Origin: Candidatus Kaiserbacteria bacterium
Lineage (GTDB): Bacteria; Patescibacteriota; Minisyncoccia; Phycocordibacterales; UBA2100
Reading direction: 5' to 3'
Assembly (NCBI GenBank): GCA_016432285.1
Contig: CP066682.1
Coordinates: 352,933-416,932 of the forward strand
DNA: 64,000 nt
Both the position numbers and the translations under genes were made by a program. Position 1 is the first letter of the stretch. Every line of letters begins with the position of its first letter. The notes beneath the pieces were generated by a model that saw only the letters and a list, made by a program, of their open reading frames with translations, was not told the DNA's origin and made no database searches. Below are positions 12,668 to 35,339 of this stretch, piece by piece.

Positions 12668-12688
12668 TTCGCGTTATGATTGAAGCAC

Positions 12689-15600
12689 ATGGGAACAACG
12701 ACCCGTGGAATTTTCAGTGTTGCGTTTTTCCTGATTTTCTACGCCTTTTTTCTTGTGCCACCTGCGGTGGCTACAATCGACGACTCCGCCGATCGAACGT
12801 GCGTGCCATTTCTTGCTGTATGCGGATGTGGTGAGACGTTGCAAAACAATACGTGCGTGAAGGTAACTTCCGAAAACACCGGTCTTAAGTCCAACGGTGT
12901 CAACATGAACGGATGCAAGTGCCAGAGCACGGAAAAACCGGCGGGTGGCACTTGCAGAGCGGTACGGGATTGCAAAGGAGAATGGTACGAGCAAAACGGC
13001 AAACGGGTCAACATCGATCCGAACGCCGAGAAGAATTTCGCGGATCTTTTGAAAGGACTTCCAAATCAACCTCCGAGCGGAGGTTCGGGACAGCAAGGGG
13101 GCGCTACACCTGATCTCTCGCCGCCGCAGCAAGCACCTTCGGAAACGAGCGATCATCAGGATTCAGAAAGCATTCAATCAGCGTTTGATCCTCTAACAGG
13201 GCAACCAATCGATCAGGGGAAGTCCGGCGATCAAAAGAATTGGGGCGAACTTCTTTCGGAGGACGAGTGGAATGATTTGGTAAAGCAAGATCAAAATCTG
13301 AGCAATCAATATCCGCCACCGACGCTGGACGAGGCGACACGGCTGCAACCAGGCTCGCCGGATACGCCATTTGATGTAGCGAAAATTGATCCGATCACGG
13401 GAGAGCCGACATACAGTGGTTTTCAAAACGGTCCGGTCCCAAACGATGAAACTGCTTCGGGGGATGAACCACGATCCGAACCGTCGTGGATGGATTCGGT
13501 CCGTGACTATGCCGGGAAAGCGTGGGACGCGATCAAGAATGAATTCGGCGGTGAGGCGGAGGCGGGTCAGGGATGCCCGAAATACAATTGTTGGGGCATC
13601 AAAAACGGCGGCAGCGGATATCAAAAATTCGGATCGGAAGAGGCCGCAGCCACACGATATCTTTCGAACTGGAAGGACTATGTCGACAAGGGATACAACA
13701 CTGTCGACAAGTATCTCAACCGATGGGTTGCCCCGAAGGAAGCCGGGACGGATCCCGAATACTATGGCCAGTATGTAAACGGAGTAAAACAAGCGATTGG
13801 CGGAAATCAGCTTGAGGCGGGCAACGCGGAGCAGGCGATCTCGATGATGAAAGCGCAAGCCCTCTACGAGCAGGGGGTCTCGGGCAGGAGCTTTCCGATC
13901 TCGGATCAGGCGATCGAGGCGGCTGCGCAACGAGTATTCGGATCGAGCTATTCCCGGGGGCCGGTGGAAGATATCGGCCCGGGAGCGGGAAGGAGTTTTG
14001 CCGCCGAGAGCTACGGCGACACGGATCGCTTTGCGCCGACGGAGGCACCCGCATGGGTGGCATCGACTCCCGGATCGACACCAGCTGATCTCGGTCTGCA
14101 ATCTGGGGTCTCTCCGTTTGGGTGGGGCAACAATTTCGACTCATACGGAGAGCCGTCCGATTCGCTCGTCGCGCAAACCGGTCCGGAAGAAACGTACGTA
14201 CCAAACGAGATCGCAAGCGGCGCGTTCGACATCGGTCCGCAGGATGTGCCGCCGCCTGTCCTCACAGACGCGCAAATCGGGGGAGGGTACAACGACCCGG
14301 ATTTCGACCCGTTCGGCGATTTCAATACGCCGGTAAACGAGCCCGCGACAGCGGACGCCGGGGATCAACAGCGCAACGAAGTCGATATTGCCGCCAACGA
14401 CGCCGAACGACAGGCGGAAATTGAGAGAGCACGAAACGAAGTCGACATCGCGGCCAACGATGCGGAGCGGCAGACGGAATTGGCTCGTGCCGAGGAGCGG
14501 CGCAACGAAGTCGATATTGCCGCCAGCGACGACGAGCGACGCCCGCTCCAGCCGAATCGCCAAGCGATCGAGCAGGCGCAGCGGGAGTATGTGGACGACT
14601 ACTTAAAGGAGTACGAGCAACGCCGTGAAGCGCAGCAACAGGCTGTAGCCAATGCGCAGAAGCAGAAGGCGCTCGACACCTTGAACGCGGCCGCGGCCGA
14701 TGTGAAAGATCGTGCCAATTCGATCGCGCAGACGGTCCGCGATCCGCAAAATCTCGACGTCAAGGATCTCGCCGCCGACGTGAAGAGCGCCCCCACCGAG
14801 CTCGCGCGTCTTCGCGCCGCCGCGCGCGAGGCGCTCGATAAGGGAGCGATCTCCAAAGAGCAGTACAACAACGTGATACGCGGGTCGGAAACGCTTCAGG
14901 GGATGGTCAGTGAGTACGCGAAGAATGACAAATATTTCAGCGAAGAATATAAAGGCCAGGTGCAAGGCGCTTTGCAGGGCAGGATTGAAACCGGCGAGAC
15001 GCGGGATCAGCTTGCGAAAGCCGGCAGCGCACTCGCGCAGGTAACCGACGTTCCGAAGACGTACACGCCGCCGCCGCGCACGCTCGGCTCAGACGCGAGC
15101 TCCGGCGTGAGCGATGCGGGGTACAGCCAGTCGCAGTCAGAAGGGTTGATCGACGGCGGCGCACTCGACTCGGGCTTCGGCCTCTCCTCGCAGCAGGTGG
15201 CCTCGCTCTACGACCAGCTCGAATTGGACGCGCAGGCGGATCAGCTGGTCGAGAGTGGGGCTCTCGACTCGGGCTTTGGCCTCACGTCGCCCCAGGTCGC
15301 ATCGCTCTACGACCATCTCGACTTGGAGAATAAAGTGGAGGGGATCGACTGGACGTCGGTTTCTTTCCACAGTCCATATACCGACACCGGTCTTTCGGAG
15401 GACATCAACGAGCAGATCCGCCTCGCGGCCGGTCCGCAGGAGTTCGTACCCGAAGAGCCGTTTGTGGAGGCGCGGCCTGATCGGAGCGGCCCGAACGATC
15501 AGGTTGCGATCAACGACGACAATCAAGTATTGCCGCTTGGTCAAAACAAGGAGGAGCTCGATCTTGAGCGGGGAGAATATGCGAAGTGGGACGACATCGT

Positions 15601-16822
15601 CCACTTTGCCGACGCGAAATCGTGGAACGACTTTGGGCAGGATGAGACGGATCGCAATTACCGCACCCCAGGCTTCCCGTCGGCTGCCGGTATCGACAAG
15701 GTCGCCGACGCGATCAGGGATGCCTCGAAAAACGTACTGGACGCATTTCGCAGCTCGGACGTGGAAGATGCGATCAAGAATTACAAAAGCCCCTACGGAG
15801 ACTACTTCGGCAACTACCTACAGTCACCGGATCCGTTCTCTCAAAGCGGCGAAGATCTGACGCGGCAGGTGCTGGCGTCCAACATTCCCGCGTCCGATCG
15901 CTTCACCCCAAGCGGGGAAGCGATTACTGAGGATGTCCTCGGGTCCAACTTCGCGCCGGTCGATTCGTCGGATCGAAGCGGCGAGGCGCTCACGCAAGAT
16001 GCGCTCGATTCCAGTTTCATCCCACCCGATTCGTTCGATCAGAGCGGGGAGGCTCTCACCGAATCCATCTCACTTTACAATCTGGCGGAATCGCAAAAGC
16101 TCATCGACGAAGGCTCGCTCGATTCTGGCTTCGACGGCTTCACCGGGGAGCAGGTAGCCGAAGCCTACCGAGACTACGCGCTGCGGAATACCGATTGGGA
16201 TCGACTCGTCTTGAACGACGACGTGCCGCAGGAAACACCTGAGGCCGATGTTTCCGATATACTGCCCGCGGATCCTTCCCAAATCGTTCCCGTAACGAAA
16301 CTCGCCGCACCAAATCAACTTATACCGAACGTGCCCGAGAAGCCGGCCGACGAGGTCAGTGCCGCCGACAAAACGGACGCGCAGTCTCCCGAAACTTCCG
16401 CCGAGGAAACTCCTGCGCAAAAGCCGCAGCTTCCAGCCGCCTGCTTCGGGCCGTCGGTCGCCGCGTGCAGTAAGGCGCTCGGCAAGGAGTGGAGCGAGAG
16501 CCGCAACGAGATCGCAAAGGATCTCGGAGTGAGCTGTACGCCCGGAAGCGCTTCCTGCAACAGGCAGATCCTAAAAGCGATCGTGGACCAAGGGGGCTTA
16601 CCACCGCCTTTGCCGCAGCCTCGAGATCCGTACTCGCGCGCGGCGCAGAATTATCCGACAGGGGACTCGCTCGTCAATTTCCTGAAAGCGGGAGGACTCC
16701 CGAGCGACTACCTCAGCCGCGCCGATTTCGCGAAGGAGAACGGCATCGACGGCTACAAAGGCACCGCGGCGCAAAACCTCCAGCTCCTCCAGTGTCTCCG
16801 AGACCCTTCCTGCAGGAAATAA
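12689..16822 (+). CDS. Giant (1378 aa) secreted repeat-rich acidic protein with Cys-rich N- and C-terminal modules
   Basis: Signal-peptide-like N-terminus (GIFSVAFFLIFYAFFLVPPAVA). Three families of internal repeats are present. An NCWGIK...F.SEE segment weakly recalls glucosaminidase-type muramidases. The C-terminal motif is SLVNFLKAGGLPSDYLSRADFAKENGIDGYKGTAAQNLQLL. TATGAT 12675-12680 lies 8 nt upstream of the ATG (the ORF-track start 12680 is TTG). Confidence 0.8.
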   Translation: MGTTTRGIFSVAFFLIFYAFFLVPPAVATIDDSADRTCVPFLAVCGCGETLQNNTCVKVTSENTGLKSNGVNMNGCKCQSTEKPAGGTCRAVRDCKGEWYEQNGKRVNIDPNAEKNFADLLKGLPNQPPSGGSGQQGGATPDLSPPQQAPSETSDHQDSESIQSAFDPLTGQPIDQGKSGDQKNWGELLSEDEWNDLVKQDQNLSNQYPPPTLDEATRLQPGSPDTPFDVAKIDPITGEPTYSGFQNGPVPNDETASGDEPRSEPSWMDSVRDYAGKAWDAIKNEFGGEAEAGQGCPKYNCWGIKNGGSGYQKFGSEEAAATRYLSNWKDYVDKGYNTVDKYLNRWVAPKEAGTDPEYYGQYVNGVKQAIGGNQLEAGNAEQAISMMKAQALYEQGVSGRSFPISDQAIEAAAQRVFGSSYSRGPVEDIGPGAGRSFAAESYGDTDRFAPTEAPAWVASTPGSTPADLGLQSGVSPFGWGNNFDSYGEPSDSLVAQTGPEETYVPNEIASGAFDIGPQDVPPPVLTDAQIGGGYNDPDFDPFGDFNTPVNEPATADAGDQQRNEVDIAANDAERQAEIERARNEVDIAANDAERQTELARAEERRNEVDIAASDDERRPLQPNRQAIEQAQREYVDDYLKEYEQRREAQQQAVANAQKQKALDTLNAAAADVKDRANSIAQTVRDPQNLDVKDLAADVKSAPTELARLRAAAREALDKGAISKEQYNNVIRGSETLQGMVSEYAKNDKYFSEEYKGQVQGALQGRIETGETRDQLAKAGSALAQVTDVPKTYTPPPRTLGSDASSGVSDAGYSQSQSEGLIDGGALDSGFGLSSQQVASLYDQLELDAQADQLVESGALDSGFGLTSPQVASLYDHLDLENKVEGIDWTSVSFHSPYTDTGLSEDINEQIRLAAGPQEFVPEEPFVEARPDRSGPNDQVAINDDNQVLPLGQNKEELDLERGEYAKWDDIVHFADAKSWNDFGQDETDRNYRTPGFPSAAGIDKVADAIRDASKNVLDAFRSSDVEDAIKNYKSPYGDYFGNYLQSPDPFSQSGEDLTRQVLASNIPASDRFTPSGEAITEDVLGSNFAPVDSSDRSGEALTQDALDSSFIPPDSFDQSGEALTESISLYNLAESQKLIDEGSLDSGFDGFTGEQVAEAYRDYALRNTDWDRLVLNDDVPQETPEADVSDILPADPSQIVPVTKLAAPNQLIPNVPEKPADEVSAADKTDAQSPETSAEETPAQKPQLPAACFGPSVAACSKALGKEWSESRNEIAKDLGVSCTPGSASCNRQILKAIVDQGGLPPPLPQPRDPYSRAAQNYPTGDSLVNFLKAGGLPSDYLSRADFAKENGIDGYKGTAAQNLQLLQCLRDPSCRK

Positions 16823-24847: not shown

Positions 24848-24923
24848 CGTATCTCCTCCAATGAACAACGTCGCTCACAAGAAAACACGATTGCCAGAGC
24901 GCGTCAAATTGGTATACTACCCG

Positions 24924-25342
24924 TCTGCGTCAGGCAATCGCCCCGCGTAAGCGGGGAGGAAAGTCCGGACACGCACATTGTTCTTACGATGTAGCAGGGT
25001 AGCGGGTAACGCCCGTCCGAGTAATTCGAGGGATGCGAACAGAGACGCCGAAGCCGAGAGGCGACGGCTCCTACCGAGGTTTAACCTCGGTCGGATGAGG
25101 CCCGCAGCAATGCGGGAGTGCAACGGCAAAAATCCTACCTGCGTGCAAGGTCGTGACCCATGGGATAATGCGCTCCGAATAGTTCGGCTGATCCGGAGAG
25201 ATGAATAAAATCCGATTTTCCGAAATGTGCGGATCGCGTTATCCCACGGGTAGAACCGCTCGAGGTGATCGGCAACGATCATCCCAGATACATGATTGCC
25301 TCGTCCTTCGGGATCAGACAGAATCCGGCTCATGACGCAGAA
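24924..25342 (+). ncRNA. rnpB: RNase P RNA, bacterial type A
   Basis: GAGGAAAGTCCGGAC at 24955-24969 and ACAGAATCCGGCT near 25317-25330. P1 pairs TGCGTCA (24926-24932) with TGACGCA (25333-25339). TATACT at 24913-24918 lies just upstream. Confidence 0.9.
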
Positions 25343-25346
25343 CGAA

Positions 25347-25375
25347 CCCCGCCGCAAGGCGGGGTTTGCTTTTTT
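25347..25375 (+). terminator. Rho-independent terminator of rnpB
   Basis: CCCCGCC-GCAA-GGCGGGG followed by TTTGCTTTTTT. Confidence 0.85.
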
Positions 25376-34367: not shown

Positions 34368-34543
34368 TGCCCTCGGCAGGAATCTCCCTCGACTCTCGGC
34401 TCGCCGTCGCTCGCCTCGGTCTGGGCACCGCCTCGCTGCTCGGCCTGCTGGCCTCGCATCGCTCCGGCGTTCGATTCCTGCACGCGCCATGCAGCGGCAC
34501 GGCGCTCTCGATCACTTGCTTCGCAGTGCCCTCGGCAGGAATC
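34366..34543 (-). mobile_element. ORF-less 140-bp structured insertion (module 2) bracketed by a 19-bp direct repeat of the tRNA-Arg 3' end
   Basis: AGTGCCCTCGGCAGGAATC occurs at 34366-34384 and 34525-34543. A hairpin lies at 34484-34505. There is a 13-bp perfect inverted copy of the tRNA T-loop plus 3' T-stem (34469-34481 vs 34535-47). Confidence 0.7.
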
Positions 34544-34923: not shown

Positions 34924-34999
34924 AACAGGTCGACTTCCAATAAAAAGATCTGGTATAGTACCGCAATCGCCCGGAGAGGTTCGTTTCTGGGCGTCGCTT

Positions 35000-35072
35000 G
35001 CCCAGATAGCTCAGGTAGTAGAGCATTCCCCTGAAGAGGGAAGGGTCGTCAGTGCAAATCTGACTCTGGGCA
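35000..35072 (+). tRNA. tRNA-Phe (anticodon GAA) with a non-canonical T-loop TGCAAAT; CCA not encoded
   Basis: Acceptor GCCCAGA/TCTGGGC, D-arm GCTCAGGTAGTAGAGC, anticodon loop CTGAAGA, T-arm GTCAG-TGCAAAT-CTGAC. TATAGT 34954-34959 lies 40 nt upstream. Confidence 0.85.
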
Positions 35073-35305
35073 CCTCTTGGAAACCCACGGTTTTCCAACG
35101 CTCGCTTCGCGAGCTGTCTTCCTCCACGGGAAAACAATTGTTTTCCCGACCCCTTTCAAAGCCCAGAAGAGCCGTGCCTGCGCACGGCTCGTGTCGGATT
35201 TGCAAGCCGGAGCCATGTCGCCTTGGCGACAGGCGAGGCCGGGCAGGAGCCACTTAACGAGCGCAGCGAGTTTAGTGAGCTGTCGCCAAATCTGACTCTG
35301 GGCAC
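35055..35305 (+). mobile_element. ORF-less 213-bp composite insertion (module 1 + module 2) bracketed by a 19-bp direct repeat of the tRNA-Phe 3' end
   Basis: CAAATCTGACTCTGGGCAC occurs at 35055-35073 and 35287-35305. Hairpins lie at 35077-35098, 35100-35114, 35127-35148 and 35169-35190. The segment GTCGGATTTGCA (35193-35204) is complementary to tRNA-Phe 35053-35064. Confidence 0.7.
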
Positions 35306-35307
35306 AC

Positions 35308-35339
35308 AAAAAAATCCGGCCTGTCAGTCGACAGGCCGG
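35308..35339 (-). terminator. Rho-independent terminator of the minus-strand membrane-protein gene
   Basis: CCGGCCTGTC / GACAGGCCGG 10-bp stem, followed on the minus strand by ATTTTTTT. Confidence 0.85.

Follow-up and report, generated by a model that had tools for sequence, protein, structure and literature searches.

Tandem gene-less inserts at a tRNA-Phe gene of a Candidatus Kaiserbacteria bacterium probably represent independent insertions that carry copies of their target

Downstream of the tRNA-Phe gene of a Candidatus Kaiserbacteria bacterium (contig CP066682.1), two structured sequence modules lie in tandem between exact 19-bp copies of the tRNA 3' end. The locus is part of a 64,000-nucleotide stretch of that contig, called the window here, in which module 1 also occurs singly in the 5' end of lepA and module 2 occurs singly after tRNA-Arg. 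The ends of the second module are predicted to close, as RNA, into a shape resembling the acceptor and T arms of a tRNA. This led us to ask whether the insert is one functional unit that mimics tRNA, as an earlier note on this DNA had suggested, or a set of insertions that carry copies of their target. The genomes of Patescibacteria are tiny and streamlined, and classical transposons are thought to be scarce in them. We consider it probable that the tRNA-Phe locus is a stack of independent insertions of gene-less elements of about 90 to 160 bp that are almost exclusive to Patescibacteria. In this probable arrangement, module 1 lies on the tRNA-Phe strand, module 2 lies on the opposite strand, and the leader of the tRNA is probably a decayed third scar.

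RESULTS

We scanned the whole window for exact direct repeats separated by no more than 1.5 kb. Pairs of at least 19 bp were found at tRNA-Phe, tRNA-Arg, and lepA (19 bp in each case), along with one 26-bp pair; 14-bp pairs were also present. At tRNA-Phe(GAA) (35000-35074, plus strand; detected by ARAGORN, 63.2 bits with Rfam, and compared with the genes of the relatives L122 and L124), the repeat CAAATCTGACTCTGGGCAC runs from T-loop position 56 (C56) through the discriminator plus 1 nt. The first copy (35055-35073) is part of the working tRNA gene. The second (35287-35305) is followed by the native flank, in which the terminator of a convergent gene lies at 35316-35339 on the minus strand. 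Both modules lie inside this single pair of repeats.

The core of module 1 (35075-35160, plus strand) is on the tRNA strand. It consists of three hairpins, HP1 (35077-35098), HP2 (35100-35114), and HP3 (35128-35147), followed by the tail GACCCCTTTC (35148-35157), and its predicted fold has a z score of -4.25. R1, a covariance model of this core, has exactly two matches in the window, at tRNA-Phe (35054-35159; 66.5 bits, E = 9e-19) and at lepA (30436-30554; 61.5 bits). Module 2 (35161-35286, plus-strand coordinates) aligns with the insert at tRNA-Arg. It opens with GCCCAGA (35161-35167), the reverse complement of the acceptor 3' strand TCTGGGC, and continues with a conserved hairpin that has a 9-bp stem and the loop CTGC (35169-35190), recognized both in the alignment and in predicted folds. 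After the hairpin comes GTCGGATTTGCA (35193-35204), an inverted copy of TGCAAATCTGAC, the T-loop and T-stem 3' strand of tRNA-Phe. The remaining body (35205-35286) comprises (A)GCCGGAGC, a variable hairpin, GCGAGGC, and GTTTAGTGAGC, as delimited by a three-copy alignment and by nhmmer matches in loci L101, L019, and L061. The earlier note had placed GCCCAGA and the stem GTCGGATTTG/CAAATCTGAC, which includes one G-T pair, where we found them, and had correctly traced the two modules to the lepA and tRNA-Arg inserts. Inserts of this type are 150 to 230 bp long and contain no open reading frame (ORF).

What these inserts do to their targets can be seen by comparison with relatives. The gene order ribonucleotide reductase, MurJ, lepA, and tRNA-Gly is conserved in the relatives that we compared, L120, L122, and L124 (LepA 85% and 82% identical to that of the window), and L122 and L124 add tRNA-Arg, tRNA-Phe, an RNase H-like gene, and HisRS. 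Between MurJ and lepA, the window has a gap of 257 bp, compared with 3 to 80 bp in the relatives, which lack an insert. The module 1 insert (30438-30588, plus strand) lies between repeat copies at 30419-30437 and 30589-30607, just inside lepA, whose native start ATG is at 30407. The insert contains a target complement, CGATGTGAGCGAT (30556-30568), which pairs with ATCGCACACATCG at 12 of 13 positions. The old lepA ORF continues through the element for 55 codons, up to a TGA (30572-30574) that lies 2 nt before a replacement ATG (30577), an arrangement that would permit translational coupling. In L120, the closest relative, lepA starts with ATGAATATCCGC, as does the upstream copy in the window, whereas the working lepA of the window starts with ATGCACATCAGA. 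Therefore, the host's original start survives as the upstream copy, and the one downstream arrived with the element. The homology between the two extends past the repeat with synonymous-type differences, and the 19-bp repeat is the stretch over which host start and element-borne start are identical. At tRNA-Arg(CCT), module 2 stands alone (34366-34524, minus strand), with 19-bp repeats at 34366-34384 and 34525-34543, the hairpin at 34484-34505, the T-arm complement GCAGGAATCGAAC at 34469-34481, and GCCGGAG at 34462-34468. The corresponding site in L124 is empty, and the tRNA runs straight into the same downstream gene. Thus, the sequences at tRNA-Phe, tRNA-Arg, and lepA are insertions that duplicate and restore the end of the target gene.

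The tandem arrangement at tRNA-Phe had been interpreted in the earlier note as either a full-length form or nested insertions. That it is a composite of units that also occur singly was borne out, but the idea of one full-length form was not: R1 misses module 2 and each module occurs alone at many other loci, so the two are adjacent insertions. GCCCAGA at 35161-35167 occupies the position of the target complement in sense copies of module 1, as can be seen from the equivalent region after tRNA-Gly in L122 (...CCCCTTTCA-TGTGCGG-16 nt-ACCCGCAC), and it is also at the position of the acceptor complement of module 2. It is therefore not assignable to one module. The simplest reading of this sequence would be that two adjacent insertions share, or have collapsed onto, one GCCCAGA.

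The other end of the tRNA-Phe gene may record a further event. A -10 box, TATAGT with an upstream TG (34954-34959, plus strand), was found by a promoter scan. The same box precedes tRNA-Gly and tRNA-Arg by 9 nt, whereas the tRNA-Phe leader is 40 nt long and contains TCTGGGC at 34986-34992, both as described before. The order of the leader is TATAGT, 9 nt, GCCCGGAGAGGTTCG, TTTCTGGGC, GTCGCTT, and the tRNA gene. GCCCGGAGAGGTTCG looks like a decayed copy of the tRNA 5' end, since it is identical to GCCCAGATAGCTCAG at 10 of 15 positions and begins exactly 9 nt after the -10 box, and TTTCTGGGC contains an inverted copy of the acceptor 5' strand. Because the decayed copy has the 9-nt spacing of tRNA-Gly and tRNA-Arg, we read the extra 31 nt (34969-34999, plus strand) as the probable scar of a 5'-end insertion that supplied a new tRNA 5' end. 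R1 found no match in the leader. The leader echoes are not conserved in relatives, as L122 and L124, which both have tRNA-Phe, carry unrelated leaders. The tRNA itself differs from theirs chiefly at its ends: the acceptor stem is GCCCAGA/TCTGGGC in the window versus GCTTGGG/CCCAAGC in the relatives, and the T-stem is GTCAG/CTGAC versus GCCGG/CCGGC. No base differs in the anticodon arm, and two differ in the D arm. These differences on both strands of the acceptor stem and T arm fit a replacement of the gene ends. We also observed that the T-loop (within 35050-35064) reads TGCAAAT, with a G at position 55, where the relatives have the canonical GGTTCGATCC. Position 55 of the tRNA T-loop is a near-universal U.

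Module 1 is widespread. Its signature, GGAAAAC-N3-6-GTTTTCCCGACCCC, was scanned in a collection of species-representative genomes and occurred in at least 119 genome stretches, nearly all of them from Patescibacteria (Saccharibacteria, Parcubacteria, and others). R1 gave 111 matches beyond short hits to HP3 only, of which 105 were full length and 6 were cut by contig ends; these came from the window and 99 loci, several of which hold a second, more divergent copy. Among the relatives, R1 detected two copies in L122, one after tRNA-Gly and one after tRNA-Arg, and a copy in L124 after tRNA-Phe. The loop of HP1 varies in length, and RNAalifold on a MAFFT alignment returned HP3 alone; we therefore used the model-based alignment. 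In this alignment, compensatory changes were found at all eight pairs of HP1 (158 cells), a level reached by none of 500 shuffles, and the covariation collapsed in slid-register controls. HP3 showed low variation, because the search pattern had fixed it. The pairs of HP1 included 57 G-T versus 12 A-C combinations, and this excess marks the element strand as the one that folds, as RNA or as single-stranded DNA. The core of module 1 is thus structurally selected on one strand. No Rfam family matched module 1, even at E values of up to 5.

This distribution bears on the most familiar explanation for such repeats, that they are ordinary attL/attR scars left by integrase-driven prophages or islands that entered at a tRNA 3' end and lost their interior. 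Repeats that span a tRNA from its T-loop to its 3' end are known as the classic signature of T-loop-type integrase sites, and a replacement for the displaced gene end is typical of integrative elements. However, between the repeats lies one and the same 90-nt core, which shows compensatory changes and is found in more than 100 genomes, at tRNAs of 17 kinds as well as at GTPase genes. No integrase was enriched within 2.5 kb of the 119 loci, and searches of 2.9 million viral contigs and of phage records returned no match to module 1. We consider such scars a very unlikely source of the inserts, and we rejected an origin from phage attP on the same viral-contig and phage-record searches.

The layout of module 1 copies shows how the core is joined to its target. 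On the element strand, a typical copy starts with a tRNA 3' end in reverse complement, covering the 3' strands of acceptor and T-stem, and this is followed by a T-loop-like ATCTCAC or a true TTCGAAC and then GTCGCTTCGCTCC. The middle holds HP1, an optional HP2, CTTCCTCCACG, HP3, and GACCCCTTTCC. After it come GTTCGAATCC and the sense T-stem/acceptor 3' strand, which together repeat the target in inverted orientation across the insertion point, and the copy ends with a spacer, often a terminator, and the tRNA 3' end again, now continuous with the complete tRNA gene. Flanking direct repeats with an ungapped score of at least 12 were present in 70 of 103 copies, compared with 1 in a control in which flanks from different loci were paired. 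The segment about 6 nt after GACCCC was complementary to the downstream target copy, at a score of at least 12, in 47 of 103 copies compared with 2 in the control. It is chiefly to this downstream copy that the complement extends, and a search for exact complements in the upstream flank alone gave a weak signal.

Most copies (62 of 103) are antisense to a tRNA gene and lie 3' of it, and tRNAs of 17 amino-acid specificities are used. Three are in sense orientation at a tRNA 3' end, including tRNA-Phe of the window and tRNA-Gly of L122, and 33 lie away from tRNAs. The sole clearly enriched neighboring protein family is that of the translational GTPases (16 loci), where the elements occupy the IIAH-IDHGK codons, invariably on the coding strand, and have repeats of 19 to 66 bp that include the start region. 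Across loci, the repeats range from 8 bp to about 85 bp (top repeat score, 79). In most loci, the outer edge of the tRNA repeats is 0 to 2 nt from the tRNA 3' end, as expected if an imported tRNA end meets the host end and identity stops at the unconserved trailers. Junctions cluster between (A/G)C and a following GTCG, and the targets contain WTCGA, a motif that the GTPase codons (ATCGAT/C) share with the reverse complement of the T-loop (TTCGAAC).

We also weighed the idea that the inserts are host regulatory or insulating modules (terminators, processing signals, or coupling leaders) that spread by duplication or gene conversion instead of transposition. Spacers of the elements often contain terminators (for example, in L013, L019, and L088), and the lepA copy creates a coupled upstream ORF, as such modules might. 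However, presence and absence vary between close relatives at orthologous sites. The core at tRNA-Phe of the window and that at tRNA-Gly of L122 are nearly identical, with a compensatory change in HP2, at sites that are not orthologous and in organisms whose LepA is 82% identical. We regard this explanation as most improbable.

The inverted target copy invites a further comparison. A nucleic-acid-guided element would use the target complement beside the core as a guide, in the manner of bridge or omega RNA, for a recombinase or nuclease encoded in trans, with the core as scaffold. In keeping with this, a conserved scaffold structured on one strand is directly followed by 10 to 20 nt that match the element's own target across the insertion point, and in L078, where two related cores lie at two different tRNAs, each with target-matched flanks, the segment differs with the target within one genome. 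However, no recombinase, TnpB, or IscB gene associated with the elements was found near the loci, and known guided systems leave neither long direct repeats nor a replacement gene end. The decay of the guide-like stems shows no wobble bias, and the lepA start borne by the element carries homology past any guide. We give the guided element little credence.

Several further observations concern the surroundings of module 1. In 5 of about 115 loci, a small ORF with a GIY-YIG domain (Pfam PF01541, E = 4e-13) is no more than about 150 nt from the element, and a sixth lies more than 1 kb away (the loci are L099, L111, L097, L110, L047, and L086); these proteins could be a partner nuclease or belong to a separate element that favors tRNA neighborhoods. 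A 230-aa helix-turn-helix protein family recurs in five other loci. A non-tRNA target ending in ...CCACCCTCCCCCGT, with the inverted copy ACGGGTACTCCCTCC downstream, was observed in seven loci (L010, L021, L026, L038, L096, L103, and L118). In L088 (2215-2470), a unit made of the tRNA 3' end, a terminator, the inverted copy, and the first 10 nt of the core is repeated in tandem, and the second unit runs into a different core variant (AAAGGGGTGCTTGCCGATAGGCAGG...). After tRNA-Gly, L124 (8518-8590) and L122 (8629-8745) have a common frame of TGTGCGG, a 16-nt spacer, and ACCCGCA, which encloses a module 1 core in L122 and an unrelated 45 nt with a hairpin (GCAGTGTGAGC...CTCACACTGC) in L124. This suggests that different cores can occupy one frame.

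Module 2 was invisible to R1, even at E = 10 with filters off. We had considered that it might be a diverged homolog of module 1 in reverse orientation and rejected this on that result; module 2 is therefore a separate family with the same logic and a different core. A pattern scan of metagenomes, with a pattern too specific in one respect and too loose in another, gave 18 matches, among which one was a true copy, L127, after tRNA-Leu with a 20-bp repeat. An nhmmer profile of three copies then matched L101 (tRNA-Val), L019 (tRNA-Lys), and the complex locus L061 (tRNA-Arg), all from distant Patescibacteria, which brings module 2 to about six copies. Read in the tRNA sense, the conserved order is a 9-bp hairpin (loop CTGC or CTAC), GTG or GTC, an 11- to 13-nt T-arm complement, (A)GCCGGAG, a variable hairpin, GCGAGGCGG, a GTTTAGTGA-like motif, and the repeat. 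The 9-bp hairpin is conserved with compensatory changes in the Arg, L127, L101, and L019 copies.

Every copy of module 2 carries the complement of the T-loop and T-stem 3' strand of its own tRNA. The match is complete in the Arg copy (GCAGGAATCGAAC, 13/13), L101 (AGGGACTCGAA, 11/11), L019 (AGGACTTGAAC, 11/11), and L061 (CAGGAATCGAA, 11/11); it reaches about 11/13 in L127 (GGGAGACGAGAAC) and consists of 11 Watson-Crick pairs and 1 G-T pair out of 12 in the Phe copy (GTCGGATTTGCA). Three of the five clean copies, Phe (GCCCAGA, 7/7), L127 (GGCAGA, 6/7), and L019 (GTGCGCCTAG, 10/10), also carry a complement of the acceptor 3' strand directly 5' of the hairpin; Arg and L101 do not. Module 1 and module 2 have one common layout. 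A separate observation concerns the tRNA-Gly trailer of the window (32976-32992), which begins with ACGAGCGAGCGCTTGG and resembles the junction motif GAGCGAAGCGAG found after the tRNA in L101 and L127; it may be a remnant.

Does the closing stem of module 2 make it a tRNA mimic? The predicted RNA fold of 35161-35305 has a free energy of -77.9 kcal/mol (z = -6.0), and none of 200 shuffles was equally stable. The minimum-energy structure consists of a 7-bp closing stem, the 9-bp hairpin, and the stem against the repeat, which is exactly the acceptor-like closure stacked on a T-arm-like stem that the earlier note had drawn. That note had seen no equivalent pairing in the Arg copy, and we agree: its fold has the hairpin and a 9-bp stem and no closing stem (z = -3.9). 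An acceptor-like stem on a T-arm-like stem is found in Phe, L127, and L019, so the closure is not a coincidence of one copy, and it is not a property of all family members.

A functional reading of this fold would be a noncoding RNA, cotranscribed with tRNA-Phe, whose ends close as an acceptor/T-arm minihelix that is recognized by tRNA-processing or -charging enzymes. Beyond the exact match of the predicted structure, the plus strand has no terminator between tRNA-Phe and 35305, T-arm complements are present in all copies and acceptor complements in three of five, and the covariation of the module 1 core is RNA-like and rich in G-U pairs. However, the closure is missing in Arg and L101. In sequence, the internal segments are the reverse complement of the gene's 3' strand: the T-stem of tRNA-Arg contains G-U pairs (5' strand GTGGG, 3' strand CCTGC), and the element segment GCAGG is the exact reverse complement of the 3' strand and not a copy of the 5' strand. 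Among 64 module 1 copies with a good target stem, 16.6 bp long on average, we found 8 G-T, 15 A-C, and 39 other mismatches; the count covers module 1 alone because the copies of module 2 are too few. Thus, there is no wobble bias in the target stems on either strand, unlike in HP1. GTPase genes show the same layout with a stem that has no resemblance to tRNA, and at most loci the tRNA and the element strand are antisense to each other, often with a terminator between them. The opposite strand of the Phe copy also folds stably (z = -4.35), as inverted repeats would be expected to. The wobble count on module 1, the copies that lack the closure, and the fold of the opposite strand speak against the proposed minihelix-like mimic, and we think that a minihelix RNA is improbable. 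Since GCAGG matches the 3' strand, wobble bias is absent in module 1, and GTPase genes have the same layout, the closing stem is best explained as a DNA-level copy of the target, and these pairings do not look like a selected mimic. The closure belongs to an inverted copy of the tRNA 3' end, which the hairpin divides.

Other features of the window were observed in passing. The 26-bp repeat pair (14371-14396 and 14500-14525) lies within a coding tandem repeat and is unrelated to the elements; three tandem coding repeats of 63 to 66 bp span 14371-14525 inside a 1,380-codon ORF (12680-16822). In the gap before the ORF at 33468, two 21-bp direct repeats with internal palindromes (ACTTTACAAAGTAAAGCGACT and ACTTTACTAAGTAAAGCAACT; 33363-33429) may form an operator-like site. 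The class A RNase P RNA (24922-25348; 117 bits, threshold 100) is 427 nt long compared with 367 model positions and may carry insertions.

DISCUSSION

The evidence assembled here leads us to favor, as the probable account of the tRNA-Phe locus, independent insertions of small gene-less elements, which would proceed as follows. On the element strand, each would consist of a target copy, a structured core, an inverted target copy across the insertion point, a spacer, and a second target copy. It would land within or beside short, highly conserved sequences, namely the T-loop or 3' end of a tRNA or the codons of the GTPase G1 motif (IIAH-IDHGK), and would bring a replacement gene end, either the 3' part of a tRNA, often with a terminator, or a GTPase start with its first codons. 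Because the replacement is supplied, the essential gene would stay functional. The direct repeat would then be as long as the host gene end and the element-borne end remain identical. We infer a small circular or hairpin-folded intermediate, made up of the core, inverted copy, spacer, and target copy, that would integrate by a crossover within the shared target sequence and be catalyzed in trans. In a circle, the junction would join the target copy to the start of the core, for example, ...ATCATCGCAC to CCATCGTCGC. The core, folded on one strand, would presumably be recognized by a trans-acting host or helper enzyme, and the inverted copy and target copy together would form a hairpin that mimics the duplex target. 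The acceptor/T-arm minihelix would be this target-derived inverted repeat.

Several points weigh against this account. No recombinase, transposase, or reverse transcriptase was enriched within 2.5 kb of the 119 loci. Module 1 at tRNA-Phe lacks a repeat pair of its own, and the composite requires an extra assumption, either a deletion between two GCCCAGA copies or a shared frame. The account does not explain the joint gain of direct and inverted copies of a new target, as in L078, and neither a circular or excised form nor polymorphism within a species was seen. Repeats of variable length (8 to about 85 bp) would fit a carried homology arm and would fit other copying mechanisms equally well. 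Since most copies are antisense to the tRNA, the folded strand may act as single-stranded DNA rather than as a transcript.

A bolder possibility, which we hold to be unlikely but worth stating, is that these are a class of self-retargeting elements without proteins, in which a host enzyme would insert the core, as single-stranded DNA or RNA, at conserved hairpins of translation genes. Insertion would copy the target in both direct and inverted form, repairing the gene and building the hairpin for the next move. If true, this would explain how one core comes to lie at 17 kinds of tRNA and several GTPases in genomes devoid of transposases, group II introns, and reverse transcriptases.

Other routes were considered and rejected. 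A fixed 19-bp target duplication from staggered cuts does not fit the 20-bp repeat of L127, the range of 8 to about 85 bp elsewhere, or the diverged homology beyond the repeat at lepA. Copying from mature tRNA, by reverse transcription or with a tRNA primer, fails because the repeats share the genomic ACC, ACT, or ACA after the discriminator and not CCA; in addition, the phylum is reported to lack reverse transcriptases (PMC13011429). Cut-and-paste at TCGA (TaqI-like) sites fits ATCGAT of lepA and TTCGAA of the T-loop but fails for the many junctions that follow GAAC.

If the elements move by independent insertion as we propose, they would rank among the main sources of structural change at the tRNA loci of the phylum and provide a route by which tRNA gene ends are replaced, as the acceptor stem and T arm of tRNA-Phe illustrate. 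They would also be a source of misannotation, in the form of duplicated tRNA ends, false upstream ORFs, and shifted starts of lepA, EF-G, and genes of that kind. The 64-kb window holds three or four gene-less elements in or against essential translation genes, and the signature of module 1 alone occurs in more than 100 species-level genomes. A highly specific insertion that restores the gene without an encoded protein would be of interest for minimal mobile DNA and for site-specific insertion.

In a literature search of limited coverage that included exact motifs, we found no description of these elements, and they seem to be undescribed. Among known systems, tRNA-integrating islands and their derivatives without an integrase, the cis-mobilizable elements (CIMEs), likewise insert at the T-loop or 3' end of a tRNA, repeat its 3' part, supply a replacement gene end, and have nonautonomous forms. 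However, the elements described here are 90 to 160 bp long and gene-less, carry an inverted target copy beside the core, and have no integrase that we could find. Integrase-type elements pair one family with one attachment site, whereas here one core is found at 17 tRNA specificities and at GTPase genes. MITEs and other miniature nonautonomous transposons are also short, gene-less, multicopy, and presumably moved in trans, but MITEs have terminal inverted repeats of their own and target duplications of a fixed length of 2 to 10 bp. In the present elements, both inverted and direct repeats are target sequence, the inverted repeat is different at each site, and the insertions are site specific, leave repeats of 8 to about 85 bp, and restore the target gene.

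Group I introns have been reported in tRNA genes of Patescibacteria as small, ORF-less, structured inserts that interrupt the anticodon loop and are spliced (PMC13011429). They resemble our elements in size, structure, lack of ORFs, and phylum, but the elements lie outside a restored intact gene and duplicate its end. Covariance models for introns of groups I and II in Rfam gave no match, even at E values of up to 5, and group II introns and reverse transcriptases are reported to be absent from Patescibacteria (PMC13011429).

The closest parallels for the folded strand are integron attC sites and the attP hairpin of CTX phage, which is used by XerCD. These also fold strand specifically with G-T pairs, form a hairpin that mimics a duplex, and belong to systems with small circular cassettes and an enzyme encoded elsewhere. 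They differ in that attC has R''-L''...L'-R' geometry with RYYYAAC/GTTRRRY at the base of the stem, whereas here GAAC/GTTC (AAC/GTT) adjoins the loop. The targets here are tRNA and GTPase genes and not attI or dif, and no IntI was found. The bridge (seek) RNA of IS110/IS1111 is likewise a structured noncoding part complementary to the target. However, those elements encode a DEDD/serine recombinase, duplicate a 2-nt core, and bring no replacement gene end, whereas ours have no ORF and leave long repeats. IS110 bridge RNA has loops for both target and donor, and of these the target complement is seen here and a donor-binding loop is not definable. Each of the nearest known kinds shares one or two features with these elements and fails on the defining ones. 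We class the elements as site-specific, nonautonomous integrative elements, and there is a real chance that their mechanism is new.

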